Assembly (NCBI GenBank): GCA_002269645.1
Contig: NIVC01002839.1
Coordinates: 62,001-126,000, forward strand
Source of the DNA: Macrostomum lignano
Taxonomy: Eukaryota
Direction of reading: 5' to 3'
DNA length: 64,000 nucleotides
The translations under genes and the position numbers were made by a program. Below, piece after piece: positions 3,886-50,705 of this stretch; positions within the stretch are counted from its first letter, which is position 1, and the number at the start of each line of letters is the position of its first letter. A model generated the notes under the pieces. That model was not told the origin of the DNA, ran no database searches, and saw only the letters and a list, made by a program, of their open reading frames with translations.

Positions 3886-4314
3886 GCACCCCTGTGTGAT
3901 GCCAACAAATGAGAATTTGTGTACATGTAGTACTCAACCAAATTATAAGTTAATATCATTGATGGTATATCTGCATTATATTGTTATTGCTTGTAGCAGT
4001 TATTAATTTAATCCATCCTTTTTCAAGTTGTGTTTCTGCCTATGCACTCGATCTAGATTATGTCCAGCTGTACTAAAATGGATTTTCTGAATTGTTATAA
4101 AAATATACCCCGCGTATATAAAGCATTCAGATTTATTTGCAAACTTATTATCAGTTTCCTTAACAGAACTTTCTCAGTGGCTTTTGGCTGACAGGAATTT
4201 GAATTGATTTGAATTTGAATAGAAGCAGAAACGGCGTGCTAAAATTTCAAAGTGACTCAGGCTTGTTTTTCAAAGAGCAACTCTTTTCAGATGTCTGCAC
4301 GGTGTCTTGGAGCC

Positions 4315-6050
4315 GGCAGGGTGTCTTCGGGTCTTCAGGGTGTATAAGGGTCTTCATGGTGTCTTAGGGTCTGCAGGGTGTCTTAGGGTCTGCAGGGTGT
4401 CTTGGGGTCTGCAGGGTGTCTTAGGGTCTGCAGGGTGTCTTTGGGTCTTCATGGTGTCTTAGGGTCTGCAGGGTGTCTTAGGGTCTGCAGGGTGACTTAG
4501 GGGTCTTCATGGTGTCTTAGGATCTTCATGCGGTGTGTCTTAGGGTCTGCAGGATGTCTTAGGGTCTACAGGGTGTCTTAAGGTCTGCAGGGTCTCCTAG
4601 GGTCTGCAGGGTCTCCTAGGGTCTGCAGGGTCTCCTAGGGTCTGCAGGGTGTCTTAGGGTCTGCAGGGTCTCCTAGGGTCTGCGGGGTGTCTTAGGGTCT
4701 GCAGGGTCTCCTAGGGTCTGCAGGGTCTCCCAGGGTCTGCAGGGTCTCCTAGGGTCTGCAGGGTCTCCTAGGGTCTGCGGGGTATCTTAGGGTCTGTAGG
4801 GTATCTTAGGGTCTGCAGGGTATCTTAGGGTCTGCAGGGTGTCTTAGGGTCTGCAGGGTGTCTTAAGGTCTGCAGGGTCTCCTAGGGTCTGCAGGGTCTC
4901 CTAGGGTCTGCAGGGTCTCCTAGGGTCTGCAGGGTCTCCTAGGGTCTGCAGGGTGTCTTAGGGTCTGCAGGGTCTCCTAGGGTCTGCGGGGTGTCTTAGG
5001 GTCTGCAGGGTCTCCTAGGGTCTGCAGGGTCTCCTAGGGTCTGCAGGGTCTCCTAGGGTCTGCAGGGTCTCCTAGGGTCTGCAGGGTCTCCCAGGGTCTG
5101 CAGGGTCTCCTAGGGTCTGCAGGGTCTCCTAGGGTCTGCAGGGTATCTTAGGGTCTGTAGGGTATCTTAGGGTCTGCAGGGTATCTTAGGGTCTGCAGGG
5201 TGTCTTAGGGTCTGCAGGGTGTCTTAGAGTCTGTAGGGTATCTTAAGGTCTGCAGGGTCTCCTAGGGTCTGCAGGGTCTCCTAGGGTCTGCAGGGTGTCT
5301 TAGGGTCTGCAGGGTCTCCTAGGGTCTGCGGGGTGTCTTAGGGTCTGCAGGGTCTCCTAGGGTCTGCAGGGTCTCCCAGGGTCTGCAGGGTCTCCTAGGG
5401 TCTGCAGGGTCTCCTAGGGTCTGCGGGGTATCTTAGGGTCTGTAGGGTATCTTAGGGTCTGCAGGGTATCTTAGGGTCTGCAGGGTGTCTTAGGGTCTGC
5501 AGGGTGTCTTAAGGTCTGCAGGGTCTCCTAAGGTCTGCAGGGTCTCCTAGGGTCTGCAGGGTCTCCTAGGGTCTGCAGGGTCTCCTAGGGTCTGCAGGGT
5601 GTCTTAGGGTCTGCAGGGTCTCCTAGGGTCTGCGGGGTGTCTTAGGGTCTGCAGGGTCTCCTAGGGTCTGCAGGGTCTCCTAGGGTCTGCAGGGTCTCCT
5701 AGGGTCTGCAGGGTCTCCTAGGGTCTGCAGGGTCTCCCAGGGTCTGCAGGGTCTCCTAGGGTCTGCAGGGTCTCCTAGGGTCTGCAGGGTATCTTAGGGT
5801 CTGTAGGGTATCTTAGGGTCTGCAGGGTATCTTAGGGTCTGCAGGGTGTCTTAGGGTCTGCAGGGTGTCTTAGAGTCTGTAGGGTGTCTTAGGGTCTGCA
5901 GGGTGTCTTAGAGTCTGTAGGGTATCTTAGGATCTGCAGGGTGTTGATAAGGATTTGCAGGGTGTATTAGGGCCTGCAGGCTGTTAATTAGGGTCTGAAG
6001 GATGTCAATTAGTGTTCACAGGGTGTCCTAGAGTCTGCAGGGTGTTTTAG
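4315..6050. repeat. 19-bp G-rich minisatellite (AGGGTCTGCAGGGTCTCCT / AGGGTCTGCAGGGTGTCTT)
   Basis: About 90 units; variant blocks at 4771 and 5417 recur 646 bp (34 x 19) apart. Confidence 0.95.
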
Positions 6051-7241: not shown

Positions 7242-7676
7242 ATGGGTTGCTGCCGAACCAGCCTTCTGACACTTTTAACCCTCCTATTGCTGGCTAAACT
7301 GTCAACGGCTCTTGACTGCCCACCTCCGTACGCCATCGAGGCTGGCAAGTGTATTTATACTAGACGAAACGATATCTACACCTGGTGCCAGGCGAACGAA
7401 ATCTGCCAGTCGATGGATGGCGAACTCATCAACCAGTACGAATCGTTGAAGGTGCTGGACAACATGCCCAGTGCAGTGAGTGCTGGCTGCAGGCTGTGGT
7501 ACGGAGTCAGCGACCTGGCGGACGAGAGAGACACCCTTAAGGGCGGCTGGCAGCGGATCAACGACTATGGAAATGTACCCTACAACACCTCCCTGTGGTA
7601 CATGGGTATGCCTAGTAGCCTTGGCAACCAGGACTGCATATCTAGCTCAACTGCCACTGTGCAGTTCATTGACACC
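7242..7676 (+). pseudogene. Secreted C-type-lectin-domain protein, 5' part, cut by LTR retrotransposon insertion
   Basis: Signal peptide (SLLTLLTLLLLAKLSTA); CTLD pattern CPxxY..GKC..TWCQANEIC..GEL..WYGVSD..W..DC. Frame rejoins at 16740 (FIDT|ECSNLRGFMCEY) when the element and one TSD are removed. Confidence 0.85.
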
Positions 7677-8735
7677 TGAAATAGATAGCGTTTTTCTCGG
7701 GGTGGCCTGGTAGGTCTTTGAATCCCACCGCTGCCACCAGTGAAGTACAATGGGTTTTCTTCCCGGTTTAGGCCCTTGCGGATTACCTTAATCTTGAGTC
7801 TCTTCAGTGGGAAGTTCTCTCAACTCTCTCAGTAGCGTAGGTAGTGCTGCCACCAGTTCCTTCAGGTCTCGGCCTTCGATAAGGTGAGCTTCCCGTCGGA
7901 ACGAAATAAACAAGTCAACGAACTCAGCACAGTGTGCAGATTTGCAGATTAATGAACAAGGCGTCCTGATCAGCAGATCCCCGCCGGGCTCAGGGGTGGC
8001 TGGGAAGGCAGTGTTAGCCTCCCTTAGGCTTGGGCTTTAGTGGGGTCTCAGTCAGACCAGTACAAACGGATTCAGTACGCAAAGGGCACTTAGTTAGACA
8101 CTGACGCACACGGGTTCTTAGTGAATTCTCCGCAGATAAGAAGCCAAAATCCTTGACGGAAACAAGGGGAGAGGGGTCCTATTTATAGCCGGGAAACACC
8201 CACGCACAAGACCTCGTGACTTGTTCTATTTTTAGAACTGACGTCACTTGAGATCTCGAGGCAGGGTCTCAGTGCGCGCAAGACCTCGTGACTCGTTCTA
8301 TTTTTAGAACTGACGTCACTTGAGGTCTCCGGCCAGAGTACACGCGGCTGTGACTCAGTTGCTATTTTTAGCAACATGAGTCACTCCTCTCCTTAGAGAA
8401 GGGAGGGTTCCGAAAGCACGTGATTCTCCCGGTAAACAGGGCCAACGAGTGCAGTAAACATGTTTACTGCACTTTAGGACTCGAAGAACGCAGAGTCTGT
8501 CATGTGACTTGCTCACATGACAGAGGAAAACGGGACGGGAACGAAACAGAGACAGCCCACAGCAGAGAAGCTGAGGGCTGAGAACAGAGACGCAGAAGGG
8601 CAGAACAGGCCAAGGGCAGCAACAGACGGGCCAAGGGGGTGGGAAGCTGACCAGCGGCAGACAGCAACCCAGGGCGAGGGCGAGGGAGACTGCTGACAAA
8701 GTGGGACGCCTAACATCAACTAGCGGATCACTACA
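7677..8735 (-). repeat. 3' LTR (1059 bp)
   Basis: Matches 15676-16735 by eye except one G in a G-run (G5 here, G6 there). Confidence 0.96.
8180..8187 (-). promoter_or_regulatory. LTR TATA box TATAAATA (second copy 16179-16186)
   Basis: Plus strand TATTTATA, downstream of the U3 motif cluster in element orientation. Confidence 0.7.
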
Positions 8736-8746
8736 CTCTCCCCGTT
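8736..8746 (-). other. Polypurine tract
   Basis: Minus strand AACGGGGAGAG directly abuts the TGTAG start of the 3' LTR. Confidence 0.8.
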
Positions 8747-9266: not shown

Positions 9267-12200
9267 TTAATTGCTGCGTTGGGTTGATCGGTGCACGCAG
9301 ATGCGGGCAGTGCGACTAACATACGTCTTGGCCCTAGGATTAATAATTAGCCTCTCAGGCTGCCTACGATTCCTAGCCGGCCTACCGACATCTACAGACC
9401 CTAATGACGCTTCCACCGGAGTGGTGCATAACGACGGCCCAGGGGTCTGGACCACAGAAAAAGCAGCACTGGGAGCGGGAGCAGAAACGGGCGGAAAAGA
9501 AACAGCAGGCATAGACGCATCAAGAACAGGCTTATGCAGATGACATTCACCATACGGCACTGGCTCACGCCGAAGTGCACTTGCCTGGTTCGCTGGTGTC
9601 GTGACCGGTCCACCTCCTGGCTGCACCTCCGGGATCGCCAAAGGCCGGAAGTGCCATCGGAAGGCCGGCCTTGCGTCGTAGCCGTCATCATCGTCATCGT
9701 CGGGGTCGTCCTGGTCGTCCTCGGGATTGGCGTCAAGGTCGCGGGTCCTGCGCCGTCGGGGACGTCGGGCGGCCGCCGGCGTTTCTTCGGTTTGTCGACT
9801 TCAGGGTCCGAAGTTCTCGTGTAGTCAGCGTCAGGCACGAGCAGAAGGTTCCGGCGATGGACGACTAGTTCGTCTCGTCTAGCTCTCGGGTTTGGCAGTC
9901 TCCGTCGAATCTTGTAGACGACCTCGCCCTTGGGCTCGACGACTTCGTATAGGGCTTTGCGAGGTCGATGAAACTTCGCCGCCTCATCCGGTTCGAGTAC
10001 CGGGTTGTTGAGGAAGACCAGATCTCCGGGTTGAAGCTTCTTGGCGACGGGCAGGTTCGAATAGTGCTCGTCTCGCAATTGCTGGTGCAGGTGCAGGCGC
10101 TCCTTGGCCAGCTCAGTCGCCTCGTCCAGGCGACGTTGAAGTCCTTGACGTAGTCGGGCAGGTCGGCGTACTCGGGCAGCTTCTTCAGCGCGTTGTCGAT
10201 CGGGAGTCGGAAATCACGGCCGAACACCAGGTAGTGAGGCGTGAAGCCGGTCACCGGGTGCACGCTGGAGCGGAGAGCCATCAGACAGGCCGGGAGGAAG
10301 GTGTCCCAGTCGTTGTGGTTGCGCTCGAGCAGACAGGTGAGGACACTCTTCAGCTGTTTGTTGAGGTTCTCGACTTGTCCGTTGGAAGCTGGATTGTACG
10401 GTGTTGTTGTCGTATGCCGAATGCCAAACAGGTCGCAGAACTTCTTGAAGGCTGAGCCGGTGAAGTTGGTGCCTTGGTCAGTGTGGATCCAGCATGGTAC
10501 ACCGAACTCGGGATGAAGCGCTCCTGCAGAAGCTTGATGACTGTTTTGGCTTTCTGGTTTCTCATCGGGTAGGCGAATGGATACTTCGACGTCGCATCGC
10601 ACAAGGTCAGGATGTAGCGGTTGCCGCTCTTGCTCTTCTGCGCGATTGGTCCTACTACATCACAGTGGATTCTACCCAGAACTTCGCAAACTGGGAAGCT
10701 CTGGACCGGAACTCTCTCTCGCCGTCGCGATTTACTTTCAAGGCAAGTGCGGCACTTACTGATGAAGGTCTTGGTAGCACGGGCTAATCCGGGTCTCCAG
10801 AACCGTTCTCGTAGCCGCAGTAACGTCTTCGTCTCGCCGAGGTGTCCACACAGTGGCGAACTGTGGAGCTCCTGGAGCACCTGGGCGTCAAGGGCCTCAG
10901 GCAGAACAACCTTTGGCGGCTGCTGGCCATCGGACAGGTCAATCAGCAGCAGGCCGTTGTCCTCCTGCAGGTTCTCATAGTATCCGAGCAGGTTCCGCTG
11001 CTCCTTCGTCAGGCGCAACCGGGCGTCGAACTCAGGCTTCGGGGCTTCGTTCTTGACCAGGTTGAGCACGTAGCTGATGGCTCGGTCAGCGCGCTGGGCT
11101 TCAACGAACTGTTGGCGAGTCATCGGCAGCTTCAGAAAATCAGTGAGCACAGCGCGGCATGGCTGAGGGGTCCGGATTCCCGCAGTCTCCGCTTTAATGG
11201 CTCCAGGTCGATCACACGGCACCGTCTTGTCGGCGTCAGGATTAGGTCGCTCCGAGGGACTTTGTCTCGCAACGTCGGCGTACGTCCGTTGATCTCGTTT
11301 CGAAGTTCTCATCGTCGCTCTATTGACAGAAAAATCCGCAGATGGAGCAGTGCACATGCCTCCACTGCCTAGCCCAGGCGACTCTTGGCTGTAGGGCGGG
11401 ACGCAACACGTGAAGCACGCCTCGTCACTGGCAGCCGTAGCCGTCGGCTCAGTCGTCGTCAAATCTGGGTGAGTCTTCTCCTGCACTGGGCGGTGTCGCA
11501 AAGGGGGAATCGACTTTCCGCACAGGCGATGAGCAGCTGTCTGTCGCCCGGGGGACAGAGCTTCGACCTTGCAGCTGGCGCGAGATTCTGGCCCTGTCAA
11601 CATGGCGAGAGATCTCAGCGAAAGGCTCAGAAGGGTTGTACTTAGGTTGCTGTCCTGGAGTTGCGTTGCGGGCCGTCATCAGAAGGGCTGCTGGCGCGGT
11701 GGCCTTTGAATCTTGGTCCGTGGGCGTCTCCAGATTCCGAGACCGGAAGTCTTGGGCGTCGTCAAGGAGGTCTGCTTCGGCGGTGGCCTCTAGGACTTCG
11801 TCCAGGTTGGTCTCCAGGTAACGGCAGTCGGCGTGGGCATCGCTGCAGAGGGCTGTCGTCACAGTGGCCTCTGGGTTGTCGTCCAGGCCGATCTCCAGGC
11901 GTTGACTGCAGCGGTGGGCGTCGTGCTGGAAGGCTGCTGGCGCGGTGGCTTCCAGGTCTTCGTCCAGGTCAGTCTCGGCCTCCAGGTAGCGAGGGTGGAC
12001 AGTCTTCGGGAGGGCTGCTCTGGCAGTGGCCTCGGGTGTCGCGTCCAAGTCCGTCTCCAGGAAACGTCGGCGCTCAGTCTTGGGGCTGCCGCCGGCACCG
12101 GGTTGGGCTGTAGAACCAGGTTGCTTTAGCAGTCGGCCATGCTCGAAGTTGATCGGTGGTGTCTCCGGTCTTCTTGACAGGGCGTCGGCGTTGGCGTGGT

Positions 12201-14559
12201 CCTTGCCTTTGCGGTGGTTAAGCTGGAAGCGGAACTCGCTAAGGCGTTCGATCCAGCGGCCTAAAATACCTGTGGCCTGAGTTTGGTTCAGTAACCACAG
12301 TAAGGCCCGATGATCGGATCGAACTTCAAACTTCTTGCCATTAAGTAATGACGGAAATGTCGCATAGCGTCCAAAATTGCAAGCAGCTCTTTCTTCGTGA
12401 CCGTGTAGCGCTTCTCAGGATCGCGAAGTTTACGGCTAAAGAACGCAATTGGACGTTCGACGCCGTCGGATTGCAGTTGTCCAAGGCAAGCGCCTATTCG
12501 AATATCAGAGGCATCCGTGTCGAGGACAAACTTCACTGCAGGATCAGAATTAAACTCAGGCAGAGCGAGAACTTCAGTAGAACACAGTTTCTTCTTCAGA
12601 GTGTCGAACGCGTGCTGATGCTCAGGAGTCCAGTGCTGCCGCAGGCTGCCAATGTCCTTTCGCGTCAGGGCATGCAGCGGCGCAGCCACTCCAGCGTAGC
12701 CGTCGACAAACTTGTGGTAGTAATTGGCGAGGCCTAGGAATTGTCTCAGTTGAGTAACGGACTGTGGCACGGGCCAATCACGGATCTGCGCAATCTTGTC
12801 CTCACAGGTCTTCAGGCCGTCGGGAGTCACGACGTGACCTAAATAATGCAGCTCCTTGAGGAACAAATGACATTCTTCGGTTTCACTTTGAGGTTGGCTG
12901 CGATGATGCGCTGGAGTACAGTTCGCAGTTATCCAGCTGTTCCTCGAAAGTCACTGAGTGCACCACGATGTCGTCCATGTAGCCAAGCGCAGTCTTTGGC
13001 GTCAGGCCGTCCAGGAGCTTATTGATGCAACGCTGAAAGCTGCCGGGACTATCGTGGAGACCCATCGGTAGAACGTTGAAACAGAATTGGCCGCGGTCGA
13101 TTACTGAGAATGCCGTCAAGTGCTGGTCGCAGTCGCGCAGCGGGATCTGCCAGAATCCTTGAGCAAGGTCCAAGCTAGAATACCACTGAGCACCACGAAG
13201 CTTCGCGAAGGTTTCCTGGATGTGCGGGAGCGGATACGGGTGATACACACACCTGTCGTTGAGAGCTCTGAAGTCGTGGACTAGTCGGATGTTGCCGTCC
13301 TTCTTGGGCACGATGAGCATTGGCGAATTGTAGCTCGAGTAGGCAGGGCGAATGATGTGCTTCGCCAGCATCTCGTCTAGCAGGGCGTCGAGTTTGTCCT
13401 TCAGATGAGGCGGGATTCGGCGCGGTGGTAGCGCGACTGGTGTCCGGTCCTTCAAGATGATCTCGTGGGTCACCAGGTGAGTCAGGCCGGCGTCTAGCGA
13501 GTGCTTGGAGAAGGCCGCTTGACATTCGACTAGTAGATCTCGCACTCTTTGATGTTGTTCTTTGGACAATTCGCTGTTGATCTCGACTTCATCTAGCCAT
13601 GCTGTGCTGGACTCTTCAGAGTTCTTCGGGAGGTGTCGCACTTCAGGTTCGGGCGTCTCGCTCAAGTACATCAGGTCGGCAGTTCGGAGTGGCGTCGCAA
13701 CGCCAACACGGATACCGGCTTGCAGGAACACCTCGCTGTCGGCGGTGTTGACGACCTCAATGTAGCCGCGACCTTCAGGCATCGTCATCAGAGCAGGCGC
13801 TGCTTCCAGAGCGTTGCAGCTGGGATGCAGCCTCGACTTAACCAGCTCGACAATTGATGGCGATCCTCGATTCTCAGGGTGGCCGTCATCCAGTCTGACG
13901 GCAAGCAGCGCTGAACTTCTAGGCGGCAGGGTGCACTTCTCGGAGGTGTACACTCGGCAGTTCTGAAGCTCACGACGTGAATAGCGAACGGGGATGCACG
14001 CGCCATTGTTAAACTTCAACATTCCTTGAGCGAAGTCCAAGTTCTGGCAGTGCTCTCGCATAAATGATACGCCAAGTAAATTTTCACAATCGGAGACCGT
14101 AACGAGGAATTCGGTGTCCGCGACGACATCACCGAACTCCACCGGGATGGTCACCTTACAAGCAAGCGGGAGCTGCGTCCCGTCATACATAGTTACGCAA
14201 TCGGGAATAGCATGCGATATAATACAACGAGGCATCCGGCGTCTAATAGCGGCCCAGGTTGACGAACCGAGGAAGTTTTTCCGGCTGCCGCTGTCTAGCA
14301 AGAAAGGGACTTCTCGACTCGCAACTCGACCTGTGACGTACGGATCGGCCTCACGCGCATGGATTTTTTGATTCGGGGAGGTGTCCACGAAACCTCCGCA
14401 CTCCGCGTCACTTACTGACGAGCGACTGTCGGACTGGGCATTGGCGCCTGCACAGCCGACATCCTCTTCTTCTGGTGACCTCTCGGAGTCTGCCAAGTAG
14501 CCTGGGCTTGGACCTCGCGGAGGGCGGTGCCGTTGTCGCTCTCCGCCTGGCCGTTTCCC
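9267..14559 (-). CDS. pol: pol polyprotein (protease, RT, RNase H, long linker, integrase), broken by several frameshifts in this sequence
   Basis: LLDSGS (PR); LDLAQGFWQ, PMGL, YMDD (RT); LDTDASD, KELLAI (RNase H); H-x7-H...CRTC, HCDVVGP, HTDQG, NGQVE (IN); C-terminal RPARNRRQPERL. Confidence 0.93.
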
Positions 14560-15585
14560 TGGTTCTGGCGCATCGGGCACTGGGCACTGCGGTGACCGGG
14601 CTGTCCGCAGCCGTAGCAGATTGTAGTCTTCGCCGGCGGGCTGTTCTTCTGCTGTTGGTCACGCTGCACCAGGTGATCAAGCAGTCGCTGCTGCTTCTCG
14701 ATCAAGTCGGTTAGAGTTAGCAAGGCTTGGGCGGTGACGTCGGGCTTCGGGTCGCCGTCCTGCTCCCCGTCCAACATCCTAACCGGGGGTTGAGCAGATC
14801 GGTGCGCCAATTCTTTGGCGCCTTCTAGTCGTCGTAGCTCTCGAATCGCAGCAAGAAGATTGTTCGGGCGAACCCAGTACAGCCGTTCACGCAGATCTGG
14901 AGTCGTCCGGATACCAGCAAGAAATTGATCAGTAATCTCCTTCTCGCGGTCTTCAGGATGCATTCGGGATATGCACGTTCACCAGAGTTCTCAGGGCGTC
15001 AGCGAACTCTTCTGCTGACTCATTCTTGCCTTGTTGACGACGTCGCAACAGTTCTCGATACTCATCAGCACCACCATGACGGGCAAATCGCTCAATAAGA
15101 CGCTGCTTGACCTCCTCGTAGCTGGCGAAACGCGGAAGATTCATACCAAGCAAGGAAGGATACGCAGTAGCCAAATCAAGACTCGCGATGAGGTGTTGCT
15201 TCATCTCGAACGGGTCGACGATGCGCTCCATCTCGCAACGCTGCTCGAACGCGGCAAGCCAGACGTGAATGTCCTGACTTGGAGTAAACTTCACAATTTT
15301 AACTTGTTTACTTACAGGCCGCTCCATCTGCTGCTGCAGAGCTGCCATCATGGTCCTGACGTCTTGGTGCGTGATGTTCCGGCCGATGTTGTCCAGGCCT
15401 TGCAGAAGCTCGTCTGGCGGGTCGTCGGACGCGTCGCTTCTGGCACCTCGCCTCGGCGTCGGCTGCTGACCGAAGTCGTTGATCGCTGCTGCTGCTGCGG
15501 CGGCGTCTCCGGCCGCAGGCCTCGAACTGCTGATGTGCTGATCCGGCCGGCTGCTGCACCGGCTTTCGTCTCGCTCGTTGAACAT
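14412..15585 (-). CDS. gag: gag with CCHC zinc knuckle; one frame break near 14960
   Basis: First ATG after the PBS at 15585 (MFNERD...); capsid-like WLAAFE...RRRQQGKNESAEEFADALR; CYGCGQPGHRSAQC. Confidence 0.85.
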
Positions 15586-15656
15586 GTTGAACTCGTCGTA
15601 GTCGCTGGCCGAAGTCGTTCTCGAAAGAGCGGTTGGCTTGGGTGTGTCGTAGTCGG

Positions 15657-15674
15657 ATCCCACCGCTGCCACCA
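15657..15674 (-). other. Primer-binding site complementary to the tRNA-Leu 3' end
   Basis: Minus strand TGGTGGCAGCGGTGGGAT, 1 nt from the 5' LTR; complement of ATCCCACCGCTGCCA+CCA, the recalled 3' end of metazoan tRNA-Leu(AAG/TAG). Confidence 0.88.
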
Positions 15675-15675
15675 G

Positions 15676-16735
15676 TGAAATAGATAGCGTTTTTCTCGGG
15701 GTGGCCTGGTAGGTCTTTGAATCCCACCGCTGCCACCAGTGAAGTACAATGGGTTTTCTTCCCGGTTTAGGCCCTTGCGGATTACCTTAATCTTGAGTCT
15801 CTTCAGTGGGAAGTTCTCTCAACTCTCTCAGTAGCGTAGGTAGTGCTGCCACCAGTTCCTTCAGGTCTCGGCCTTCGATAAGGTGAGCTTCCCGTCGGAA
15901 CGAAATAAACAAGTCAACGAACTCAGCACAGTGTGCAGATTTGCAGATTAATGAACAAGGCGTCCTGATCAGCAGATCCCCGCCGGGCTCAGGGGTGGCT
16001 GGGAAGGCAGTGTTAGCCTCCCTTAGGCTTGGGCTTTAGTGGGGTCTCAGTCAGACCAGTACAAACGGATTCAGTACGCAAAGGGCACTTAGTTAGACAC
16101 TGACGCACACGGGTTCTTAGTGAATTCTCCGCAGATAAGAAGCCAAAATCCTTGACGGAAACAAGGGGAGAGGGGTCCTATTTATAGCCGGGAAACACCC
16201 ACGCACAAGACCTCGTGACTTGTTCTATTTTTAGAACTGACGTCACTTGAGATCTCGAGGCAGGGTCTCAGTGCGCGCAAGACCTCGTGACTCGTTCTAT
16301 TTTTAGAACTGACGTCACTTGAGGTCTCCGGCCAGAGTACACGCGGCTGTGACTCAGTTGCTATTTTTAGCAACATGAGTCACTCCTCTCCTTAGAGAAG
16401 GGAGGGTTCCGAAAGCACGTGATTCTCCCGGTAAACAGGGCCAACGAGTGCAGTAAACATGTTTACTGCACTTTAGGACTCGAAGAACGCAGAGTCTGTC
16501 ATGTGACTTGCTCACATGACAGAGGAAAACGGGACGGGAACGAAACAGAGACAGCCCACAGCAGAGAAGCTGAGGGCTGAGAACAGAGACGCAGAAGGGC
16601 AGAACAGGCCAAGGGCAGCAACAGACGGGCCAAGGGGGGTGGGAAGCTGACCAGCGGCAGACAGCAACCCAGGGCGAGGGCGAGGGAGACTGCTGACAAA
16701 GTGGGACGCCTAACATCAACTAGCGGATCACTACA
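15676..16735 (-). repeat. 5' LTR (1060 bp)
   Basis: Copy of 7677-8735. Confidence 0.96.
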
Positions 16736-16739
16736 CACC

Positions 16740-17058: not shown

Positions 17059-17299
17059 AGATCTACCTGAATATGAGCAGGAATCGATCAAAAAAATTAA
17101 CTCTTTTTAAGCAGCAGATTTTTAATCAACACAAATATAACCAACTAGCCTAAAAAAACGATTTTCGTTTGCAATAACAACCCGACGAGTTTAGAGTTTT
17201 TCAAAAATAAAGTTAAGATTGTTAGCTATACTACTTTAAAGCGTAAATATCAGACCTGAGGATTATTGGTTGTTCCTCAATCTATCAGATCTATCAATC

Positions 17300-17548
<249 letters not shown>

Positions 17549-17582
17549 ATTGAGCTACTGGCTTTATTACTCAATCCGCTAA

Positions 17583-18410
17583 TCATTGGCAATCACGGGA
17601 AGCTGGTGCTGCAGAGAGATCCGGTGGTGCCAGCGTCCGCAGCGCGTTCCTCCCCCTCGATTTCAGGAGGTGGATGGTTGCTCTCTCGGTAGCCCTTCGG
17701 TAACAGACGAGCTGGCAGAGATTCTGGGGCCTGAAAAAGTCTGGAGAGGTCCGGGTTTCTTGGGCCAAGGCAGTCACAGAGGCAGAATGGTCATTCCTTA
17801 ATTTGAGGATCTTTCCGTGAAGGTAGCGATGCCTGGCAGAAGCGGTGTAATTTCCTATTTGAAACAATTATTACACCTGCTTTTTCGAGAGCCAGACAAA
17901 TTTTACATCTATTCAAGCCTACAAACTCCCTAGCTAACCTAACAACAAACATATTGCCCTGGCATACACTACTAACACTTTTAAACCCCAGAGAGAATTA
18001 TCTCCGTAGATCTACAATACAACTAAAAAATAGACGCTCGAATATTGCATAATTTTCACTGAACAATATGTGATGAATGATTTCAGAAAGCAATAAAAAA
18101 TTAAAACTTTTCAGTAAGTTAAAACTAATTATTAATGCGCATACGATGCCGTAATTGTGCATTTCAAAATTTTATAAAGTCGTACCTCTTGGAGATAAAA
18201 TAATATTTTTTAGAGTTTCAGTTGTTTTTTAAGTTGACCATGAGCACCATTTATGTGCAGATTCCCTGCAGTTGTCATCGATCCTTGACATCAGAAGGTA
18301 GTCTGCCATCTTTGTCAGGAGCACACTTCCGATTGTAGAATTCTTCACTTAAAGAAGTAGGCATTGCGTTTGAAGTTGCCTGATATTTATCAACAATTTC
18401 CTAAACTTTA
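17583..18410 (-). pseudogene. Unassigned exon-like coding remnants (about 18250-18410 and 17583-17850)
   Basis: AG acceptors at both starts, coding-like composition, AATAAA at 17563-17568; no stop-free joined frame and no family recognised. Confidence 0.3.
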
Positions 18411-18443
18411 ATACGGCTTAAAAGTAAATACTCGACAAAGAAT

Positions 18444-19005
<562 letters not shown>

Positions 19006-27900: not shown

Positions 27901-28958
27901 TGGCTCAGATGAGTCGACAGATTATTGACGACTTTTTCGTTCACAATGGAGCGCTTTATGAGACCAACTCCGCTGCCGGTCTGGATGAAGGAGCGAACCC
28001 TGGTTCTGAGCCAGCTGCAGATGTAGGAGAGGTGGGGGCTGAGGCTGCTGGTGAGACTGCCAATGAAGCTATCAATCAAGCTACAAATGAAGGTACCAAC
28101 GAAACTACAAATGAAGGTAACAACCAAGCTACCAACCAAGCTACAAATGAAGGTACCAATGAAACTACCAATGAAGGTACTAACCAAGCTACCAACCAAG
28201 CTACAAATGAAGGTACCAACGAATCTACCAACCAAGCTACAAACGAAACTACCAACGAAGCCACAAACCAAGCTACCAACGAAGCTACCAACCAAACTAC
28301 AAATGAAGGTACCAACGAAGCTACCAACGAAGCTACCAACGAAGCTACAAACGAAGGTACCAACCAAGCTACAAACGAAGGTACCAACCAAGCTACAAAC
28401 GAAGGTACCAACCAAGCTACAAACGAAGGTACCAACCAAGCTACAAACGAAGGTACCAACCAAGCTACAAACGAAGGTACCAACCAAGCTACAAACGAAG
28501 GTACCAACCAAGCTACAAACGAAGGTACCAACCAAGCTACAAACGAAGGTAGCAACCAAGCTACCAACCAAGCTACCAACCAAGCTACCAACCAAGCTAC
28601 CAACCAAGCTACAAATGAAGCTACAAACGAAGCTACCAACCAAGCTACCAACCAAGCTACAAACGAAGGTACCAACCAAGCTACCAACCAAGCTACAAAT
28701 GAAGGTACCAACGAAGCTACCAACCAAGCTACAAACGAAGGTACCAACCAAGCTACCAATGAAGGTACCAACAAAGCTACGAACGAAACTACCAACGAAG
28801 CTACGAATCAAGCTACCAATCAAACTACCAATAAGGCTACGAATGAGGCTACCAACGAAACTGCAAATGAATTTACTAACGAAGTCGGAATGGAGACAGT
28901 AAACAGGATTGCGCAGCCAACGCTCGAGGTGGCCAATGAAAAGATTGCTAGCGAATGA
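24906..28958 (+). CDS. Divergent importin-alpha, exons 24906-25581, 26797-27238, 27672-28958; frameshift near 25362; long TNEG/TNQA repeat tail
   Basis: ARM motifs QYECAWVLTN, REQACWALANI, LWAMSYL, PALRVFGN, KREAFW, IEHCGGLKKIELVQ...QIIDDFF match importin-alpha; GT-AG junctions are phase-compatible. Confidence 0.88.
25650..26485. repeat. Intronic minisatellite, 23-bp units grading into 24-bp units with shared core TCCCTGTCTCTT
   Basis: Period 23 at 25681/25704; period 24 at 26281/26305. Confidence 0.93.
27424..27625. repeat. 24-bp intronic minisatellite GCACCTATCCACCAATCACTCATC
   Basis: About 8 units. Confidence 0.95.
28060..28880 (+). repeat. Coding 12-bp repeat giving TNEG/TNQA/TNEA tetrapeptides
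   Basis: In frame with the last importin-alpha exon, no stop until 28956-28958. Confidence 0.9.
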
Positions 28959-29710
28959 TAACGCTAAAAAATAACAAGTGACGGTTTTATTAGCCGTTGT
29001 CGTTAAAAAGTCGCTAGCAGAGAAACAAAGCGGGGAATTAAGTTTGCATATAGGAACAATTTATTTGTTTAAATCGTTTCGCAAATAAGGCAATTCAACC
29101 AGATGAGCAAATGCAATTCTGCCAAAATCTTCATTTAAATTTCTCTGCCCACGTAGCAATGAGCAATGTAAAAATATCTTCCGCTTTGAAATGACAAAAC
29201 TATTGCAAATAAAGCTGGACTCTCCTGGCCAACTTCATTAACCTAATAGCTGGTTATTCTCCTTGCTTGGGAATTCTTTTTATTCAAAACAGGTGAGGAG
29301 CAGGGAAAGAAGGGAGAATCTAGCTAGAGGCAAGAGTGGAGAATAGATGGAGAGAGAGAGAGAGGGCATAGTGGAGAGAGAGAATAAATAAGATGAGAGG
29401 GGAGAGGAGATAAAAGAAGACGAACCTTACGAACCGAACCGTACTGCTGTTGTGAAGTTCCCAAGGACCCAACGGCCGGATAGAGAGGCTTCGCTAGCCG
29501 GAGTTTGTCGACCCCCTGTTGTTCAACCTAAAAGCTGCATGCAGAATTTTGACTAAATCGCATGTCTCTGTGACGACAGGGGGAACTGCACTTTAACTCT
29601 TCATCTTGAAATTACGAAATGACTTTATACAGGAAATACATGTCCGAGCGTACATGAACATTATATTACAATTTAATTCACCCAGAGTTATATAAATGAG
29701 CCATCTCATC

Positions 29711-40100: not shown

Positions 40101-43100
40101 GGGGAGATTCTGAGAGTATGGGGAGATTCTGAGGAGATTATTCGATGCTGAGGGATGGGGAGATTCTGAAGGGATGGGGAGATTCTGGAGGGATGGGAGA
40201 TTCTGAGAGTATGGGGAGATTCTGAGTATTGGGAGATTCTGAGGAATTGAGACGATGCTGAAGGTATTGGGAGATTATGAGGGGATGGGGAGATTTTTAT
40301 GGGATAGGGAGATTCTGGGGGATGGGGATTCTAAGTGGATGGGGAGATTCTGAGGGGATGGGGATTCTGAGGGTATGGGGCAGGATTCTGAACGGATAAG
40401 GAGTTGCTGAGGGAATGGGGTGATTTTGAAAGGATGGCTGGATTCTGCGTGAAAGAGACTCCATCTTTTTGAGAACAGGATATAAAGGGAATTCCGATGG
40501 GATTAGAAATTTTAATGCATGGGGATGTGCAGAAGCAGAGGATGTTTAAATCGTATTTTATTCCCGCCTTTGTCTCTAGGGCGGTTCTCTCCGCCAAGCT
40601 CACCTGCTACTACTCGACGAAGCTTCATCATCCACTTCGTCGAACGCCGACGCCCAGCTCAAACGCCTCGAGCCGTTGCTGAAGCCTCATAAAATTCGAG
40701 TTGCTCGTCTCGCCTGCGGTAACTCAGCTGATCAATCGACTCGCAATCTGTGTCAGCGACTGCCAATTCTTCGCAGTGCCAAGAAACAGCAGCACCAGCC
40801 TGCCGCGGTGCTGATCAAACGAACTGGCGATTTTGAAGTTTATTATGGTGAGTGAGACTGTTGATAGAGTTGCACAGATACAGATGAGAGTGATAGAGAT
40901 GCTGAGGTGCTGGCGCCCCTGGTGCTAAAGCCCCTGGTGCTGGCGCCCCTGGTGCTGGCGCCCCTGGTGCTAAAGCCCCTGGTGCTGGCGCCCCTGGTGC
41001 TAAAGCCCCTGGTGCTAAAGCCTTTGGTGCTGGCGCGCCAGCACAAGGGCACAAAACTTTTGGGCGCCATTGCCAGTCATTGGCCACGCCCTAGCTCAGC
41101 ATCTTGATCACCATATAGCTGTCACGCACCCGTTTCAGGCGAAGTTCACTACATGGACATCAAAGAGTTCGCATTGGCCGCCATCGCCAATCCAATGACC
41201 GGACTGACAGGCGAGACTTTTGCCAATCTGGTGGATTCCGCGCCTGACGGCACCTATTGGTTCTTGGACTTTTTTGCTCCGGTAAGTGCTTGCATTTTTA
41301 TAGGGCGAAGTGACGGTTGGTACGGATAAGAGAGGGAGGTATGGGCTAGGGCTCAGAGAGGGAGGTAAAGATGAGAGAGGTAGGATAGGGATGAGAGAGA
41401 CAGGTAGGGATGAGAGAGACAGGTAGGGATGAGAGAGACAGGTAGGGATGAGAGAGACAGGTAGGGATGAGAGAGACAGGTAGGGTTGAGAGAGACAGGT
41501 AGGGATGACAGAGGGGGCTGGGATGAGAGAGACCGGTGGTGATGAGAGAAACAGACAGACAGGGATGATAGAGGGGGCTGGGATGAGAGTGACAGGTGGT
41601 GATGAGAGTGACAGGTGGTGATGAGAAAGACAGGTAGGGATGAGAGAGACAGGTAGGGTTGAGAGAGACAGGTAGGGATGACAGAGGGGGCTGGGATGAG
41701 AGAGACCGGTGGTGATGAGAGAGACAGACAGACAGGGATGATAGAGGGGGCTGGGATGAGAGTGACAGGTGGTGATGAGAGTGACAGGTGGTGATGAGAA
41801 AGACAGGTAGGGATGAGAGAGACAGGTAGGGATGAAAGAGGGGGCTGGGATGAGAGTGACAGGTGGTGATGAGAGAGACAGACAGGTAGGGATGACAGAG
41901 GGGGCTGGGATGAGAGAGACAGGTGGTGATGAGAGAGACAGGTGGTGATGAGAAAGACAGACAGACAGGGATGATAGAGGGGGCTGGGATGAGAGTGACA
42001 GGTGGTGATGAGAGTGACAGGTGGTGATGAGAAAGACAGGTAGGGATGAGAGAGACAGGTAGGGTTGAGAGAGACAGGTAGGGATGAGAGAGACAGGTAG
42101 GGATGAAAGAGGGGGCTGGGATGAGAGTGACAGGTGGTGATGAGAGAGACAGACAGGTAGGGATGACAGAGGGGGCTGGGATGAGAGAGACAGGTGGTGA
42201 TGAGAGAGACAGGTAGGGATGAGACAGACAGGTAGGGTTGAGAGAGACAGGTAGGGATGAAAGAGGGGGCTGGGATGAGAGTGACAGGTGGTGATGAGAG
42301 AGACAGACAGGTAGGGATGACAGAGGGGGCTGGGATGAGAGAGACAGGTGGTGATGAGAGAGACAGGTGGTGATGAGAAAGACAGACAGACAGGGATGAT
42401 AGAGGGGGCTGGGATGAGAGTGACAGGTGGTGATGAGAGTGACAGGTGGTGATGAGAAAGACAGGTAGGGATGAGAGAGACAGGTAGGGTTGAGAGAGAC
42501 AGGTAGGGATGAGAGAGACAGGTAGGGATGAGAGAGACAGGTAGGGATGAGAGAGACAGGTAGGGATGAGAGAGACAGGTAGGGATGAGAGAGACAGGTA
42601 GGGTTGAGAGAGACAGGTAGGGATGAGAGAGACAGTTAGGGATGAAAGAGGGGGCTGGGATGAGAGTGACAGGTGGTGATGAGAGAGACAGACAGGTAGG
42701 GATGACAGAGGGGGCTGGGATGAGAGAGACAGGTGGTGATGAGAGAGACAGGTAGGGATGAGAGAGACAGGTAGGGTTGAGAGAGACAGGTAGGGATGAA
42801 AGAGGGGGCTGGGATGAGAGTGACAGGTGGTGATGAGAGAGACAGACAGGTAGGGATGACAGAGGGGGCTGGGATGAGAGAGACAGGTGGTGATGAGAGA
42901 GACAGGTGGTGATGAGAAAGACAGACAGACAGGGATGATAGAGGGGGCTGGGATGAGAGTGACAGGTGGTGATGAGAGTGACAGGTGGTGATGAGAAAGA
43001 CAGACAGACAGGGATGATAGAGACAGGTAGGGTTGAGAGAGACAGGTAGGGATGAGAGAGACAGGTAGGGATGAGAGAGACAGGTAGGGATGAGAGAGAC

Positions 43101-46100
43101 AGGTAGGGATGAGAGAGACAGGTAGGGATGAGAGAGACAGGTAGGGTTGAGAGAGACAGGTAGGGATGAGAGAGACAGGTAGGGATGAAAGAGGGGGCTG
43201 GGATGAGAGTGACAGGTGGTGATGAGAGAGACAGACAGGTAGGGATGACAGAGGGGGCTGGGATGAGAGAGACAGGTGGTGATGAGAGAGACAGGTAGGG
43301 ATGAGAGAGACAGGTAGGGTTGAGAGAGACAGGTAGGGATGAAAGAGGGGGCTGGGATGAGAGTGACAGGTGGTGATGAGAGAGACAGACAGGTAGGGAT
43401 GACAGAGGGGGCTGGGATGAGAGAGACAGGTGGTGATGAGAGAGACAGGTGGTGATGAGAAAGACAGACAGACAGGGATGATAGAGGGGGCTGGGATGAG
43501 AGTGACAGGTGGTGATGAGAGTGACAGGTGGTGATGAGAAAGACAGGTAGGGATGAGAGAGACAGGTAGGGTTGAGAGAGACAGGTAGGGATGAGAGAGA
43601 CAGGTAGGGATGAGAGAGACAGGTAGGGATGAGAGAGACAGGTAGGGATGAGAGAGACAGTTAGGGATGAGAGAGACAGGTAGGGATGAGAGAGACAGGT
43701 AGGGATGAGAGAGACAGGTAGGGATGAGAGAGACAGGTAGGGATGAAAGAGGGGGCTGGGATGAGAGTGACAGGTGGTGATGAGAGTGACAGGTGGTGAT
43801 GAGAGAGACAGGTGGTGATGAGAGAGACAGGTGGTGATGAGAGTGACAGGTGGTGATGAGAGAGACAGGTGGTGATGAGAGAGACAGGTGGTGATGAGAG
43901 AGACAGGTATACCTACGTAGAGATGAGAAGAATCAGTGCAGAAGGGGGAGATGGATGAGAAAGGAGATAGAAGAGATGTGTTACAGAAGGGGGGACAGGA
44001 GCAGCAGAATCAAGGAGAGAGACAGGTTATCAATAATATCAGTGGTATAGTGCTAGCAGTCCAGTCCCCATCAAGGCCACACCGTGCATCTCTACCTACC
44101 AAAACCCCCACCCCTCCACCCAGTGGTGCCCGCCCTGCATGAAGGCTCTGCCGCAGTTCCGCGAAGCGGCCCGCCTCTACGAATCCGAACTGGGCGTCGA
44201 CCTGCCAGCCGGGGTTCGTCTACGCTTCGGCGCAATCGACTGCACTATTGACAAAGCGTTGTGCAACAGGTTCTCAATCAATAGTTATCCCACACTGCTG
44301 CTGCTGTTGAAGGGCAATTCAAAGCGAGTGAAATTTCGCGGCTCAAAATTTGCTCACCAAATGCTGGCTTTTGCCGAAGCGTTTGTTAAACCGGCGGCAG
44401 TGTATTTCAATCCTGATAGCTTCGAGAACACGGTGGCTGTCAGCAAGCGGACTCACGTCTGGCTGGTGTACTTTCATTCCGTTAATTGCCAGCCGTGCGT
44501 TGAGTTTATGCCCGAGCTGAATGCCTTGGCTAAGGTTTGTGTGTACTGTGTAATAAATGTATGGGGAAAATTTCTTATCTAGGGTGTTTTGGATAAAATC
44601 GGAATGATTTCCCAATGGGATATTTTGGAATGGTATGGGATTATTTCCTAGTGGGATATTTTGGAATGGGATAGGATGATTTCCCAAATGGGATATTTTG
44701 GAATGGGATAGGATGATTTCCCAAATGGGATATTTTGGAATGAGATACGATGATTTCCCAATGGGATATTTTGGAATGGGATAGGATGATTTCCCAATGG
44801 GATATTTTGGAATGGTAAAGGATGATTTCCCAATGGGATATTTTGGAATGAGATAGGTTGATTTCCCAATGGGATATTTTGGAATGGGATAGGATGATTT
44901 CCCAATGGGATATTTTGGAATGAGATAGGATGATTTCCCAATGGGATATTTTGGAATGGTAAAGAATGATTTCCTAGTGGGATATTTTGGAATGGGCTAG
45001 GATGATTTCCTAGTGGGATATTTTGGAATGGGATAGGATGATTTCCTAGTGGGATATTTTGGAATGGGATAGGATGATTTCCTAGTGGGATATTTTGGAA
45101 TGGGATAGGATGATTTCCTAGTGGGATATTTTGGAATGGGATAGGATGATTTCCTAGTGGGATATTTTGGAATGGGATAGAATGATTTCCCGAATGGGAT
45201 ATTTTGGAATGGGATAGGATGATTTCCCAATGGGATATTTTGGAATGGGATAGGATGATTTTCCAATGGGATATTTTGGAACGGTATAGGATGATTTCCC
45301 AATGGGATATTTTGGAATGGTATAGGATGATTTCCTAGTGGGATATTATGGAATGGGATGATTTCCTAATGGAATATTTTAGAATGGTATAGAATGATTT
45401 CCCAATATAATATTTTGGAATGGGATAGGATGATTTTCCAATGGGATGTTTTGAAGTAGGATAGGATGATTTCCCAATGGGATGTTTTGGAGTGGGATAG
45501 GATGATTTCCTAGTGGGATAGAATGATTTCCCAATGGGGTATTTTTGAATGGGATATGATGATTTCCTAGTGGGATAGAATGATTTCCCAATAGGATATT
45601 TTGGAATGGGATAGATGGTTTCCCAATGAGGTATTTTTTAATCGGATGGATAATTTCCGAATGGAATATTTTGGACTGCGGATAGATGATTTCTTAAAGG
45701 GATATTTTTTAACCGGGATGATTTCCCAATGGGAAAATTAGTATAGTCTTAAAACTTCTAACATGCTTGGTAACTGCCGTCAGCTGTCTATGGAAAGTTA
45801 AAATCCTTTCCATTCGCTCCAACAGAACTTTCAAGGCCATCGGCATATTCGCATTGGCGCTGTGGATTGCGTCACTCATCCAAATCTGTGCAGCAGGAAC
45901 GGAATCCGGTCCTATCCAACCATCAGGGCCTACCCAGTGGATAAGACTGGACCAGACGATTATTTGTAAGCAGTTTAGTTTCTATCAATATTAACTTTTT
46001 TTGCATTTTCATCCTAGTAGTCTACTAATAGTAGAAATTTTATAAAATTACCAGTAAATATAATGATACGTTTAATACTGGATGCTTTATAACTTCACTA

Positions 46101-48518: not shown

Positions 48519-49311
48519 TAAGAAATTCTCAAATGTTATAATAGAAACATTCTCTTAGCCTACTTGAAGTAGTCTTCATTCTGTCAAAATTTTGAACTTT
48601 TTGATTCTTTTAGACGTCTATTAAACAACTACTGGTGTTTTTGTTGTCTGTAATTGTTTGTTCGCGATCAAAATATGTGTTTTTTATTTGCATTACTATT
48701 AGTTTAGTAGTGGTTGAGGTCCGTCTCTGCCTTTTTTTCTGTATTGTTAAACTAAGATTTTTCTAAAGTCTTCCCATAAGGTTGCAGGACCAGAATTGAG
48801 GCAATGAATGTTTCTTTTTTGTTTTTTAGTCCGTTTGTTTTTGTTGAAGCGCATTATTAAACCTCCCAAGGATTTGCATTCGTTTTCAGTTAAAATGTGT
48901 ACGATTTAAAGATTAGCTATTTGTTATGTTGTATGCACAAATATAATATATACTGGTAGTAGCTATTTAAAAATGTGCCAAAATTTGTCCTTTTTGTTTG
49001 ATTTTTTTCAAATTTGTATCATAACTTAACACTTCTGTGCGATTGATATGCGAAATGACTAGTAGGGTTTTAAGGGGGTCACAATGTAGAGTGGGTCAGT
49101 GTAACCACCGCTTGTATATGAAGCTAAGAGACCACCCTAAATATTGTTATAGAGGTCTATGACCCTTCTCAAGTTGTAGAATCAAAGTAGGTTAATAGCC
49201 ATCCTCAGGATGTATTATATAAAAGGTGGGCAATGACCCCTCTGAAGTTGTAGGATCTAATGGGTCAATAGCTACCCTCAAGATGTATTATTGAAGGGGG
49301 TCGCTGATAAC

Positions 49312-50015
49312 CCTGAGAGTCCAGAATCAAAGGGGTCACAATGACCACCCTGAGAGTCCAGAATCAAAGGGGTCACAATGACCACCCTGAGAGTCCAGAA
49401 TCAAAGGGGTCACAATGACCACCCTGAGAGTCCAGAATCAAAGGGGTCACAATGACCACCCTGAGAGTCCAGAATCAAAGGGGTCACAATGACCACCCTG
49501 AGAGTCCAGAATCAAAGGGGTCACAATGACCACCCTGAGAGTCCAGAATCAAAGGGGTCACAATGACCACCCTGAGAGTCCAGAATCAAAGGAGTCACAA
49601 TGACCACCCTGAGAGTCCAGAATCAAATGGGTCACAATGACCACCCCGAGAGTCCAGAATCAAAGGAGTCACAATGACCACCCTGAGAGTCCAGAATCAA
49701 AGGGGTCATAATGACCACCCTGAGAGTCCAGAATCAAATGGGTCACAATGACCACCCCGAGAGTCCAGAATCAAAGGAGTCACAATGACCACCCTGAGAG
49801 TCCAGAATCAAAGGGGTCATAATGACCACCCTGAGAGTCCAGAATCAAAGGGGTCATAATGACCACCCTGAGAGTCCAGAATCAAATGGGTCACAATGAC
49901 CACCCCGAGAGTCCAGAATCAAAGGGGTCATAATGACCACCCTGAGAGTCCAGAATCAAATGGGTCACAATGACCACCCTGAGAGTCCAGAATCAAAGGG
50001 GTCCAGTGACCACCC
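49312..50015. repeat. 37-bp minisatellite GAGAGTCCAGAATCAAAGGGGTCACAATGACCACCCT
   Basis: Period 37 at 49321/49358; about 19 units. Confidence 0.96.
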
Positions 50016-50705
50016 TCAAAAGTTAGAACTTTATTAATATCGTATTTGTGTGCTGCTTTTACCGTACCTTTCCTGTCTGTTATCTGAACGGTTTTAGGTA
50101 TTATTTTGCATTTCTATTTTTAGCTTAATTGGTGGCTCTCATTTTATCGTTGCCATGGCTTCTGTGCTTTGAATTTGATCCCTTCGCTTTAATTTCTGGG
50201 TTTTTCGTTGCTCCCAAAAATTCGGCCTTCTTGCCTTTTTGTTGTTGTTTTTTTCTGTTCCATCTTATGGAATCTCTTGCTGAGCCCCCAACTTATCTCT
50301 GCATTAAACTAATTTCATATAGATGTAGTCTGGAAGGTTATTTGTTTCTACGTTGAAAAGTAACAGGTTAGCCATTAATTCGTGCACAAAACACCGATGC
50401 GTGCACCTGTGCCTCTGTGTCATGCGAGTTGCTTTATCTATTATTTAAGCTTGCCTATAATATATTAAACTATTATATTTCTTAATCCTACAATAGTCTG
50501 TGTAACTTGTAAAATCAGAGTCAGAACCTTCTGCAAAGAATTTCAATTTCAATAGAAATAGCAAGAAAAAGATTAATGTGCTAAATAAAACAAGAAATAC
50601 TTGCTCTTATCTTCTTTAATGCGCCGTTTTGCAACAGTGAAATTTAAAAAATATTTGTTTCAGTCTTATTTGTTTGCTAATTTTAATTATCATAATCCTT
50701 GAGAC

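Follow-up and report, generated by a model that had tools for sequence, protein, structure and literature searches.

Introduction

In retroviruses, plus-strand strong-stop DNA terminates with 18 nt copied exactly from the primer tRNA, and m1A58 is the stop for copying into this tRNA. In Ty1, a multipartite primer-binding site (PBS) consists of a 10-nt PBS together with boxes 0, 1 and 2.1 (PMC3592414, in excerpt), and in Drosophila gypsy, which has a 5′ and a 3′ PBS, only one of the two is needed for cDNA synthesis (PMC1635307, in excerpt). For mouse ETn/MusD elements, escape from 3′ tRNA fragments as well as tRNA-templated reversion have been proposed, and Ty3 is said to inherit its PBS strictly (both in excerpts of PMC7472051).

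Here we analyse a stretch of 64,000 nucleotides of the Macrostomum lignano genome (hereafter the window), in which a retrotransposon carries its PBS, joined to an LTR end, a second time inside its own LTR. In the open-licence PMC and bioRxiv literature, with older subscription papers outside the scope, we found no description of whole PBS plus LTR-end units repeated in U5. A preceding sequence-only reading had drawn attention to this arrangement and had offered several explanations, which are weighed below against the element's family, the host tRNA-Leu genes and related families.

Results

A young Ty3/gypsy element on the minus strand

The window contains, on its minus strand, a young Ty3/gypsy LTR retrotransposon, in which env was not found. 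Its main features are the following.

7673..7676, no strand: TSD CACC, 4 bp, with its partner at 16736-16739
7677..8735, minus: 3′ LTR, 1059 bp
8736..8743, minus: polypurine tract adjoining the 3′ LTR, assigned from sequence
9401..15600, minus: gag (CCHC knuckle), protease-like motif, RT, RNase H and integrase, in this order
15657..15674, minus: true (outer) PBS, 18 nt, perfect complement of the 3′ end of host tRNA-Leu AAG/TAG
15676..16735, minus: 5′ LTR, 1060 bp, with TG..CA ends on the element strand
16179..16186, minus: TATA-like box, a promoter predicted from the letters

The assignment to Ty3/gypsy follows from a pair of direct LTRs that are bounded by TG..CA and flanked by a TSD, from a Leu PBS and a polypurine tract, and from the Pfam domain order RT, RNase H, integrase downstream of gag. 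The top two solved matches of the RT were 4ol8 (1.4e-25) and the Ty3-G Gag-Pol structure 7q5b (8.6e-25), and the putative protease is a DSG motif alone, with no Pfam match. Two ORFs past the integrase core gave no family match, ~530 nt being left before the polypurine tract, and classification as an endogenous retrovirus or errantivirus was rejected for lack of env in these two ORFs. The two LTRs share 1059 identical bases and differ by one gap; despite this near-identity, frameshifts spread the gag-pol reading over several frames, which reflects either long-read indel errors or a defective copy.

Several other observations concern the element and its surroundings. RNase H and integrase are separated by a repetitive insert (~11450-12100 of the window), and U3 contains, at 16198-16335, two near-identical blocks of 60-70 nt with TGACGTCA and TTCTATTTTTAG words, possibly enhancer repeats. 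In the sense orientation of the LTR, no canonical AATAAA was noticed. Tandem repeats with periods of 4-8, 12, 19, 36 and 37 nt form large arrays at positions 1790-2900, 4180-5600, 17230-19000, 27950-29000, 41300-43900, 44600-45600 and 49150-50100 of the window. Elsewhere in the host genome (G000, a 764-Mb assembly), tandem elements with a common LTR were seen (C1903, C3668 and C255; L103 and L106), recognizable by an LTR between polypurine tract and PBS or by junctions ~8 kb apart.

The primer site recurs inside the LTR

The end of the LTR next to the PBS is organized as follows.

15676..15739, minus: optional unit, 64 nt, at the LTR end; 3′ LTR copy at 7677-7740
15683..15690, minus: GATAGCGT, one allele of the hypervariable LTR terminus, present in 8/27 units
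15700..15716, minus: conserved box, GGTGGCCTGGTAGGTCT on the plus strand, which aligns with tRNA D-arm boxes of sister families
15721..15738, minus: inner perfect PBS; copy at 7722-7739
15830..15855, minus: deep site, i.e. a 10-nt partial PBS, a short spacer and the complement of tRNA nt 1-8; copy at 7831-7856

The sequence-only reading had noted a 23-mer spanning PBS and LTR end at three places and a third, partial copy deeper in the LTR. All of these are real: ATCCCACCGCTGCCACCAGTGAA is found at 7722, 15657 and 15721, 100 shuffles giving 0 matches even when 3 mismatches are allowed, and the partial copy GCTGCCACCAGT lies at 7846 and 15845. The LTR borders, the one-gap identity of the LTRs and the CACC duplication together identify 15657-15674 as the true PBS and place the copies at 15721 and 7722 inside the LTRs. 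In this element the outer PBS is perfect and 1 nt away from the LTR end, and the inner PBS likewise adjoins an LTR-end junction (G + TGAA, 15739-15743). A longer match that had been read at the inner copy stood in part, since its TTTGA extension mismatches the tRNA (TTCGA) and is not constant between families in the final three bases.

The tRNA-Leu start given in the sequence-only reading is correct. Twelve host tRNA-Leu genes (7 AAG, 5 TAG) match the PBS exactly at their 3′ ends, and all twelve start with GGTAGCGTGGCCGAG[C/T]GGTCT. Single contigs from two other public sequencing runs bridge both PBS copies in tandem, and the layout is thus not an assembly artefact.

The inner unit is optional in the family

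A leader motif retrieved 63 5′ junctions of the family, of which 59 were read; merging those with identical flanks left 54 insertions, a set that still holds one duplicate pair (L029/L030, alike by their 3′ flank) and in which two merged rows are LTRs inside tandem elements. The inner unit is optional and not fixed: 32/54 insertions have none, 17/54 have one and 5/54 have two, and one LTR with three units was found (L034). Throughout the family, the unit measures 62-65 nt and consists of an old LTR end, a spacer and a PBS, i.e. it runs from the hypervariable LTR terminus through the conserved box to the inner PBS, which is perfect in 25/27 copies. The 17 nt adjoining the LTR-end junctions exist in 38 alleles among the 54 insertions. 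As a further observation, these LTR-end alleles swap between inner and outer junctions (15676-15695 and 15740-15760 in the window), and the rest of U5 is conserved.

On a tree built from the LTR core, leaving out the variable part, the presence of the unit takes 13 changes at best, and at least 9 by well-supported branches, compared with a mean of 17 after shuffling. With respect to conservation, the two inner copies pointed out earlier thus part ways: the one at 15721 is absent from 32/54 insertions, and the partial one at 15845 belongs to a deep site that is present in 59/59 junctions (scored with up to 4 edits).

Such an optional unit, shuffled across the tree, would also be expected if ordinary tandem duplications of the U5 end and PBS simply accumulated and were rendered harmless by a fold-back hairpin, the tRNA-5′-like words then resulting from the complementarity of the two tRNA ends. 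We regard this neutral explanation as rather unlikely, for reasons that lie mainly in the box described below.

The true primer-binding site is usually imperfect

In 41/54 insertions, the outer PBS carries a 2-nt insertion, in most cases with one further substitution (family junctions in the range L043-L112). The predicted duplex energy with the tRNA end is -39.0 kcal/mol for a perfect site and -32.9 or -26.0 kcal/mol for bulged ones. Genome-wide, 101 PBS copies with this +2 insertion were counted, as compared with 3 with +1 and 2 with +3. The insertion always sits at one position, five bases from the CCA-pairing end, and involves at least 9 different inserted words in several families. Twenty of the +2 sites were read, and 16 of them follow a leader in three family types, the other 4 being inner copies in AT-rich arrays. 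A second tRNA that matches the bulged PBS is an unlikely reason, as it would have to match over 20 nt and the letters of the insertion are variable.

Perfect outer sites are scattered on the LTR-core tree (11 changes, shuffled mean 11.8), which may represent tRNA-templated reversion or recombination. They occur in 8/22 insertions with and 5/32 insertions without the unit (p 0.11), so units are not enriched with bulged sites. One unit of 36 nt (L192) combines a perfect inner with a bulged outer PBS. This is what is expected if inner copies are templated by the tRNA, as is the general pattern of 25/27 perfect inner and 41/54 bulged outer sites. In the AT-rich family (L180, L190, L193 and L195), bulged PBS copies are found at inner positions too, so that not all inner copies can have been templated by tRNA.

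The bulge invites an explanation in terms of host defence, according to which priming at a bulged PBS escapes 3′ tRNA fragments and the perfect inner copies act as decoys that soak up such fragments or hold a spare primer. The recurrence of +2 with varied words in several families agrees with this, as does the scatter of perfect outer sites, which resembles that in mouse ETn/MusD (excerpt of PMC7472051). However, 27/41 bulged-outer insertions lack the unit, and units show no enrichment with bulged sites; moreover, a perfect site in the RNA should itself invite silencing. We therefore consider a decoy function improbable, even though the perfect inner site was not used by any of the 11 bulged-outer insertions with both ends available, as shown in the next section.

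Priming probably occurs mostly at the outermost site

The end of the 3′ LTR marks the place where priming began. Of 22 unit-bearing rows, one was left out as a duplicate and two because their 3′ LTR had not been retrieved, so that 19 insertions enter such a tally, with TSDs confirmed for 15/19. The unit is kept in the 3′ LTR of 17/19, and the 3′ LTR stops at the inner junction in 2/19 (95% interval 1-33%). These two, C163 and C2478, are the kind of LTR variant, ending at the inner TGAA or its equivalent, that the sequence-only reading had proposed to look for; their TSDs match and their LTR cores are identical at 995/996 and 983/983 positions, respectively. Their short 3′ LTRs fit the footprint expected of inner priming and could instead reflect transfer from one co-packaged RNA to another, of which only one has the unit. 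C511 and C206 show that the two LTRs of a pair can differ in this unit.

All 11 bulged-outer insertions with both ends available kept their units, and must thus have been primed at the bulged site with a perfect site 64 nt away (inner-site use 0/11). A connection of inner priming with a perfect outer site was rejected (2/8 compared with 0/11, p 0.16). Neither does folding explain why the outer site wins, because predicted accessibility does not differ between the inner (0.29) and the outer site (0.25). Inner copies are likely to be used for priming only rarely.

A tRNA-like box and a deep site accompany the primer copies

The sequence-only reading had seen tRNA-5′-like words ahead of each inner copy. 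One of them holds: GTGGCC..GGTCT forms a conserved box that lines up with longer D-arm boxes of sister families. GATAGCGT, by comparison, was discarded as a conserved tRNA 5′ mimic, being a minor allele. Five-mers from tRNA nt 1-22 cover 21/43 bases of the unit spacer, compared with a shuffle mean of 4.0, 0/2000 shuffles reaching 21, and with 6 in the best U3/R control window. In the sister families, L073, L083 and L148 carry TGGCCTGAG[C/T]GGTCTA, a copy of the D arm with the same spacing and extra T as the box (p<1/300 each). By local alignment, a box corresponding to tRNA 1-30 was not significant in about half of 19 sequence clusters, that of the window family included. Matches of 15-23 nt to the tRNA-Leu 5′ end and D arm were also observed inside LTRs of other Leu-primed families, in L073 (417), L083 (8502), L148 (987), L140 (853), L158 and L091.

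Within the RNA of the element, two 6-bp helices can form between the box and the inner PBS (predicted -19.6 kcal/mol), and in longer predicted folds the box pairs with the outer PBS instead. Compared with shuffles, this hairpin is not clearly stronger (z -1.67, 14/200; p 0.078), and its strength was set aside as evidence for a lock. In predictions that include the tRNA, the unit pairs with the two tRNA ends, and binding is as strong as that of the outer site (cofold ddG -26.4 kcal/mol for the unit, -25.5 for the outer PBS and -15.3 for the deep site). The hairpin and tRNA-pairing readings are confounded, however, because the 5′ and 3′ ends of the tRNA are complementary to each other, so that a sequence complementing the tRNA 5′ end also complements the PBS.

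Variation in the box bears on the neutral accumulation of duplications introduced above. In its favour, nearly all of the 22 box variants are predicted to form the same hairpin, and in L160 a change from GGTAGG to GGTGGG improves pairing with the PBS and breaks the match to tRNA 1-5; four variants break both kinds of pairing. Columns that are unpaired in the hairpin and match the tRNA are nevertheless conserved among in-register variants (C in 20/20; T, C and T in 20/20, 19/20 and 18/20), the GGTCT lying in the hairpin loop, and the long D-arm boxes of the sister families cannot pair with a PBS at all. Conservation of the box columns may, on the other hand, stem from common ancestry of one cassette.

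The deep site speaks against neutrality as well, since clusters that possess it keep the tRNA-type GGTAG and not the PBS-type GGTGG. In the prediction it forms 10 and 9 pairs with the two acceptor-stem strands, and the other tRNA arms stay folded. In sister families it takes the form GGTAG..CTGCCACC, with the GGTAG arm present in 7/19 clusters. The earlier suggestion that the RNA offers several tRNA-binding sites is thus borne out in so far as extra complementary segments exist, with pairing that is judged from sequence and partly confounded; tRNA may bind at these extra sites. Such complements of the cognate primer outside the PBS are also a feature of a multipartite PBS.

Another proposal had been that the antisense strand folds into a CCA-ending acceptor-stem mimic. 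The plus strand at 15830-15854 can indeed form a 6-bp stem before ACCA, with an AATAAA ~50 nt further on (15904-15909, a motif also seen on this strand in several sister families). Yet the fold is no better than chance (z -0.11; -0.14 and +1.13 for longer stretches), any sense sequence that binds both acceptor strands yields such a stem by complementarity, ARAGORN detects no tRNA in the window and there is no sign of a processed CCA end. An antisense tRNA mimic can hardly be credited.

The words in the window do appear in tRNA order (1-8, 7-12, 17-21 and 54-76), as if reverse transcriptase had once read on beyond m1A58 into the tRNA, jumping over the anticodon and variable arms, and had left a copy that was later enclosed by a new LTR end. 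An exact TTCGA in one unit (C206:36855) and L076-type leaders, which start with the complement of the T loop, point in the same direction. The 1-8 word, however, is the minor allele mentioned above, the spacer aligns with an ordinary LTR end over ~20 nt, and inner copies of other families start exactly at 18 nt. We thus find it highly improbable that the unit is a relic of such read-through, which could still be the distant origin of the D-arm box. Words from tRNA nt 23-58 are not enriched in the 43-nt spacer, and matches of mid-U5 to the anticodon and variable arms of host tRNAs were rejected, being at chance level (p 0.18-1.0). A separate observation concerns one family (L076, L081, L141 and L176), in which the leader directly inside the PBS consists of TCTCGAATC-type words, arrayed in tandem, that resemble the PBS end plus T loop.

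Primer-site units are a habit of Leu-primed families

Units of PBS and LTR end are a clade-wide habit of Leu-primed families, as observed in the host genome and in three contigs of one marine metagenome. The host genome contains 666 perfect Leu-PBS matches, 318 of which are preceded by the box core GGYAGGTYTT; with about half of the matches flanked in this way, PBS-based annotation can misplace LTR ends. Among the matches listed, other Leu-primed families have units of 35, 59, 71-74, 78 and 85-86 nt (20 + 40 loci drawn from the first 100 Leu-PBS sites listed). In two unit-bearing families, the RT is 63-68% identical to that of the window element. AT-rich families contain rows of decayed PBS–LTR-end junctions, and in some LTRs older junctions lie deeper.

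In L084, the 35-nt unit stops at 5 nt of microhomology (ATCCC) in U5; microhomology at the unit edge, which is expected if a DNA end re-anneals inside U5, was found in this one family and not seen for the unit of the window family. The metagenomic contigs (L173-L175) are AT-rich and contain 2-5 tandem 60-63 nt units of Leu-PBS, AATT and a TG-starting end, with no long ORF or flanking retrotransposon ORF seen nearby. Arrays without a lock, which occur in other families and in the metagenome, again agree with neutral tandem duplication.

Discussion

Overall, we favour, with some reservation, an explanation in which the LTR end is an accordion of optional units, each consisting of an LTR end and a tRNA-Leu primer site, which arise by mis-transfer and spread by recombination, with U5 acting as a multipartite PBS. 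That U5 grew by repeated capture of PBS/LTR junctions, as the sequence-only reading had considered, is well supported by LTRs with 0-3 units, from other unit lengths, from decayed junctions deeper in the LTR and from the two insertions that end at the inner junction.

In mechanistic terms, plus-strand strong-stop DNA may miss the PBS and re-anneal inside U5. The primer and the final 17-68 nt of the LTR would then be recopied, so that the LTR comes to contain a perfect PBS. Subsequently, template switches from one PBS repeat to another would gain, lose and multiply units, the distribution of which is what we observe. Priming would take place mostly at the outermost site, even if it is bulged, with the inner site used in perhaps a tenth of insertions, i.e. 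those that bear the footprint of a shortened LTR. The D-arm/5′-end box is predicted to cover the inner PBS in the absence of tRNA and to pair with the 5′ part of the tRNA when this is bound, and in this way the unit might persist. Finally, the invariant deep site would grip both acceptor strands, which could make U5 an upstream multipartite PBS comparable to the Ty1 boxes. What counts against this accordion with a function in primer binding is that the unit is dispensable, 32/54 insertions doing without it.

A more elaborate variant, which we think unlikely, is a division of labour in primer handling. Here, the masked perfect sites in U5, i.e. the inner unit and the deep site, would capture and open the tRNA, and the bulged outer PBS (+2 nt, five pairs from the primer end) would prime and thereby evade 3′ tRNA fragments. 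The poor match during second-strand transfer would in turn breed new units, so that host defence would ultimately drive the growth of U5.

Since LTR ends are set by the position of the primer, the natural alleles with 0-3 units represent a ready-made series for studying the choice of priming site and the lengthening of U5. Furthermore, the recurrent +2 bulge (101 copies, as opposed to 5 with +1 or +3) extends the trade-off of priming against silencing that was proposed for mouse endogenous retroviruses to Ty3/gypsy elements and makes this trade-off testable.

Among the known systems, we know of no reiterated PBS or LTR-end junction connected with the U5–primer contacts (PAS) of HIV-1 and Rous sarcoma virus. 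The likeness to these viruses is that U5 pairs with the primer outside the PBS (a point mentioned in the excerpted part of PMC3592414). Helenus TRIMs also have tRNA-like sequence inside their LTRs; they are non-autonomous, however, and keep pol III boxes A and B in a tRNA-like part that has no complementarity to their own PBS (PMC10886601, in excerpt), whereas the pieces in the window element are those of the cognate primer, without any tRNA gene call. An element of the Helenus/TRIMp3 type, i.e. non-autonomous, <1 kb and with a whole tRNA-like pol III promoter in the LTR, is ruled out by a length of 9 kb, the gag-pol remains and this lack of a tRNA call. With mouse ETn, MusD and IAP, the window family shares that the commonest PBS is imperfect and that perfect ones are scattered on the tree, but it differs in having a position-specific 2-nt insertion, in an env-less Ty3/gypsy element and beside perfect inner copies (according to the excerpt of PMC7472051).

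The bipartite PBS of Ty3 and gypsy is similar in that a Ty3/gypsy element has more than one tRNA-binding site, which for the window family is a prediction; in Ty3/gypsy, however, the second site lies near the 3′ end of the RNA and concerns a different part of the tRNA, whereas the window family repeats the complement of the acceptor end (as far as described in the excerpt of PMC1635307). Ty1 resembles it in having extra sequences near the PBS that complement other arms of the primer tRNA. Its boxes are located downstream of a 10-nt PBS, whereas those of the window family are upstream, in the LTR, beside whole 18-nt PBS copies and old LTR ends, and vary in number (both points from excerpts of PMC3592414). 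Thus, what is new relative to the multipartite PBS of Ty1 and Ty3/gypsy is that a whole PBS together with an LTR end is repeated inside the LTR, in variable number.
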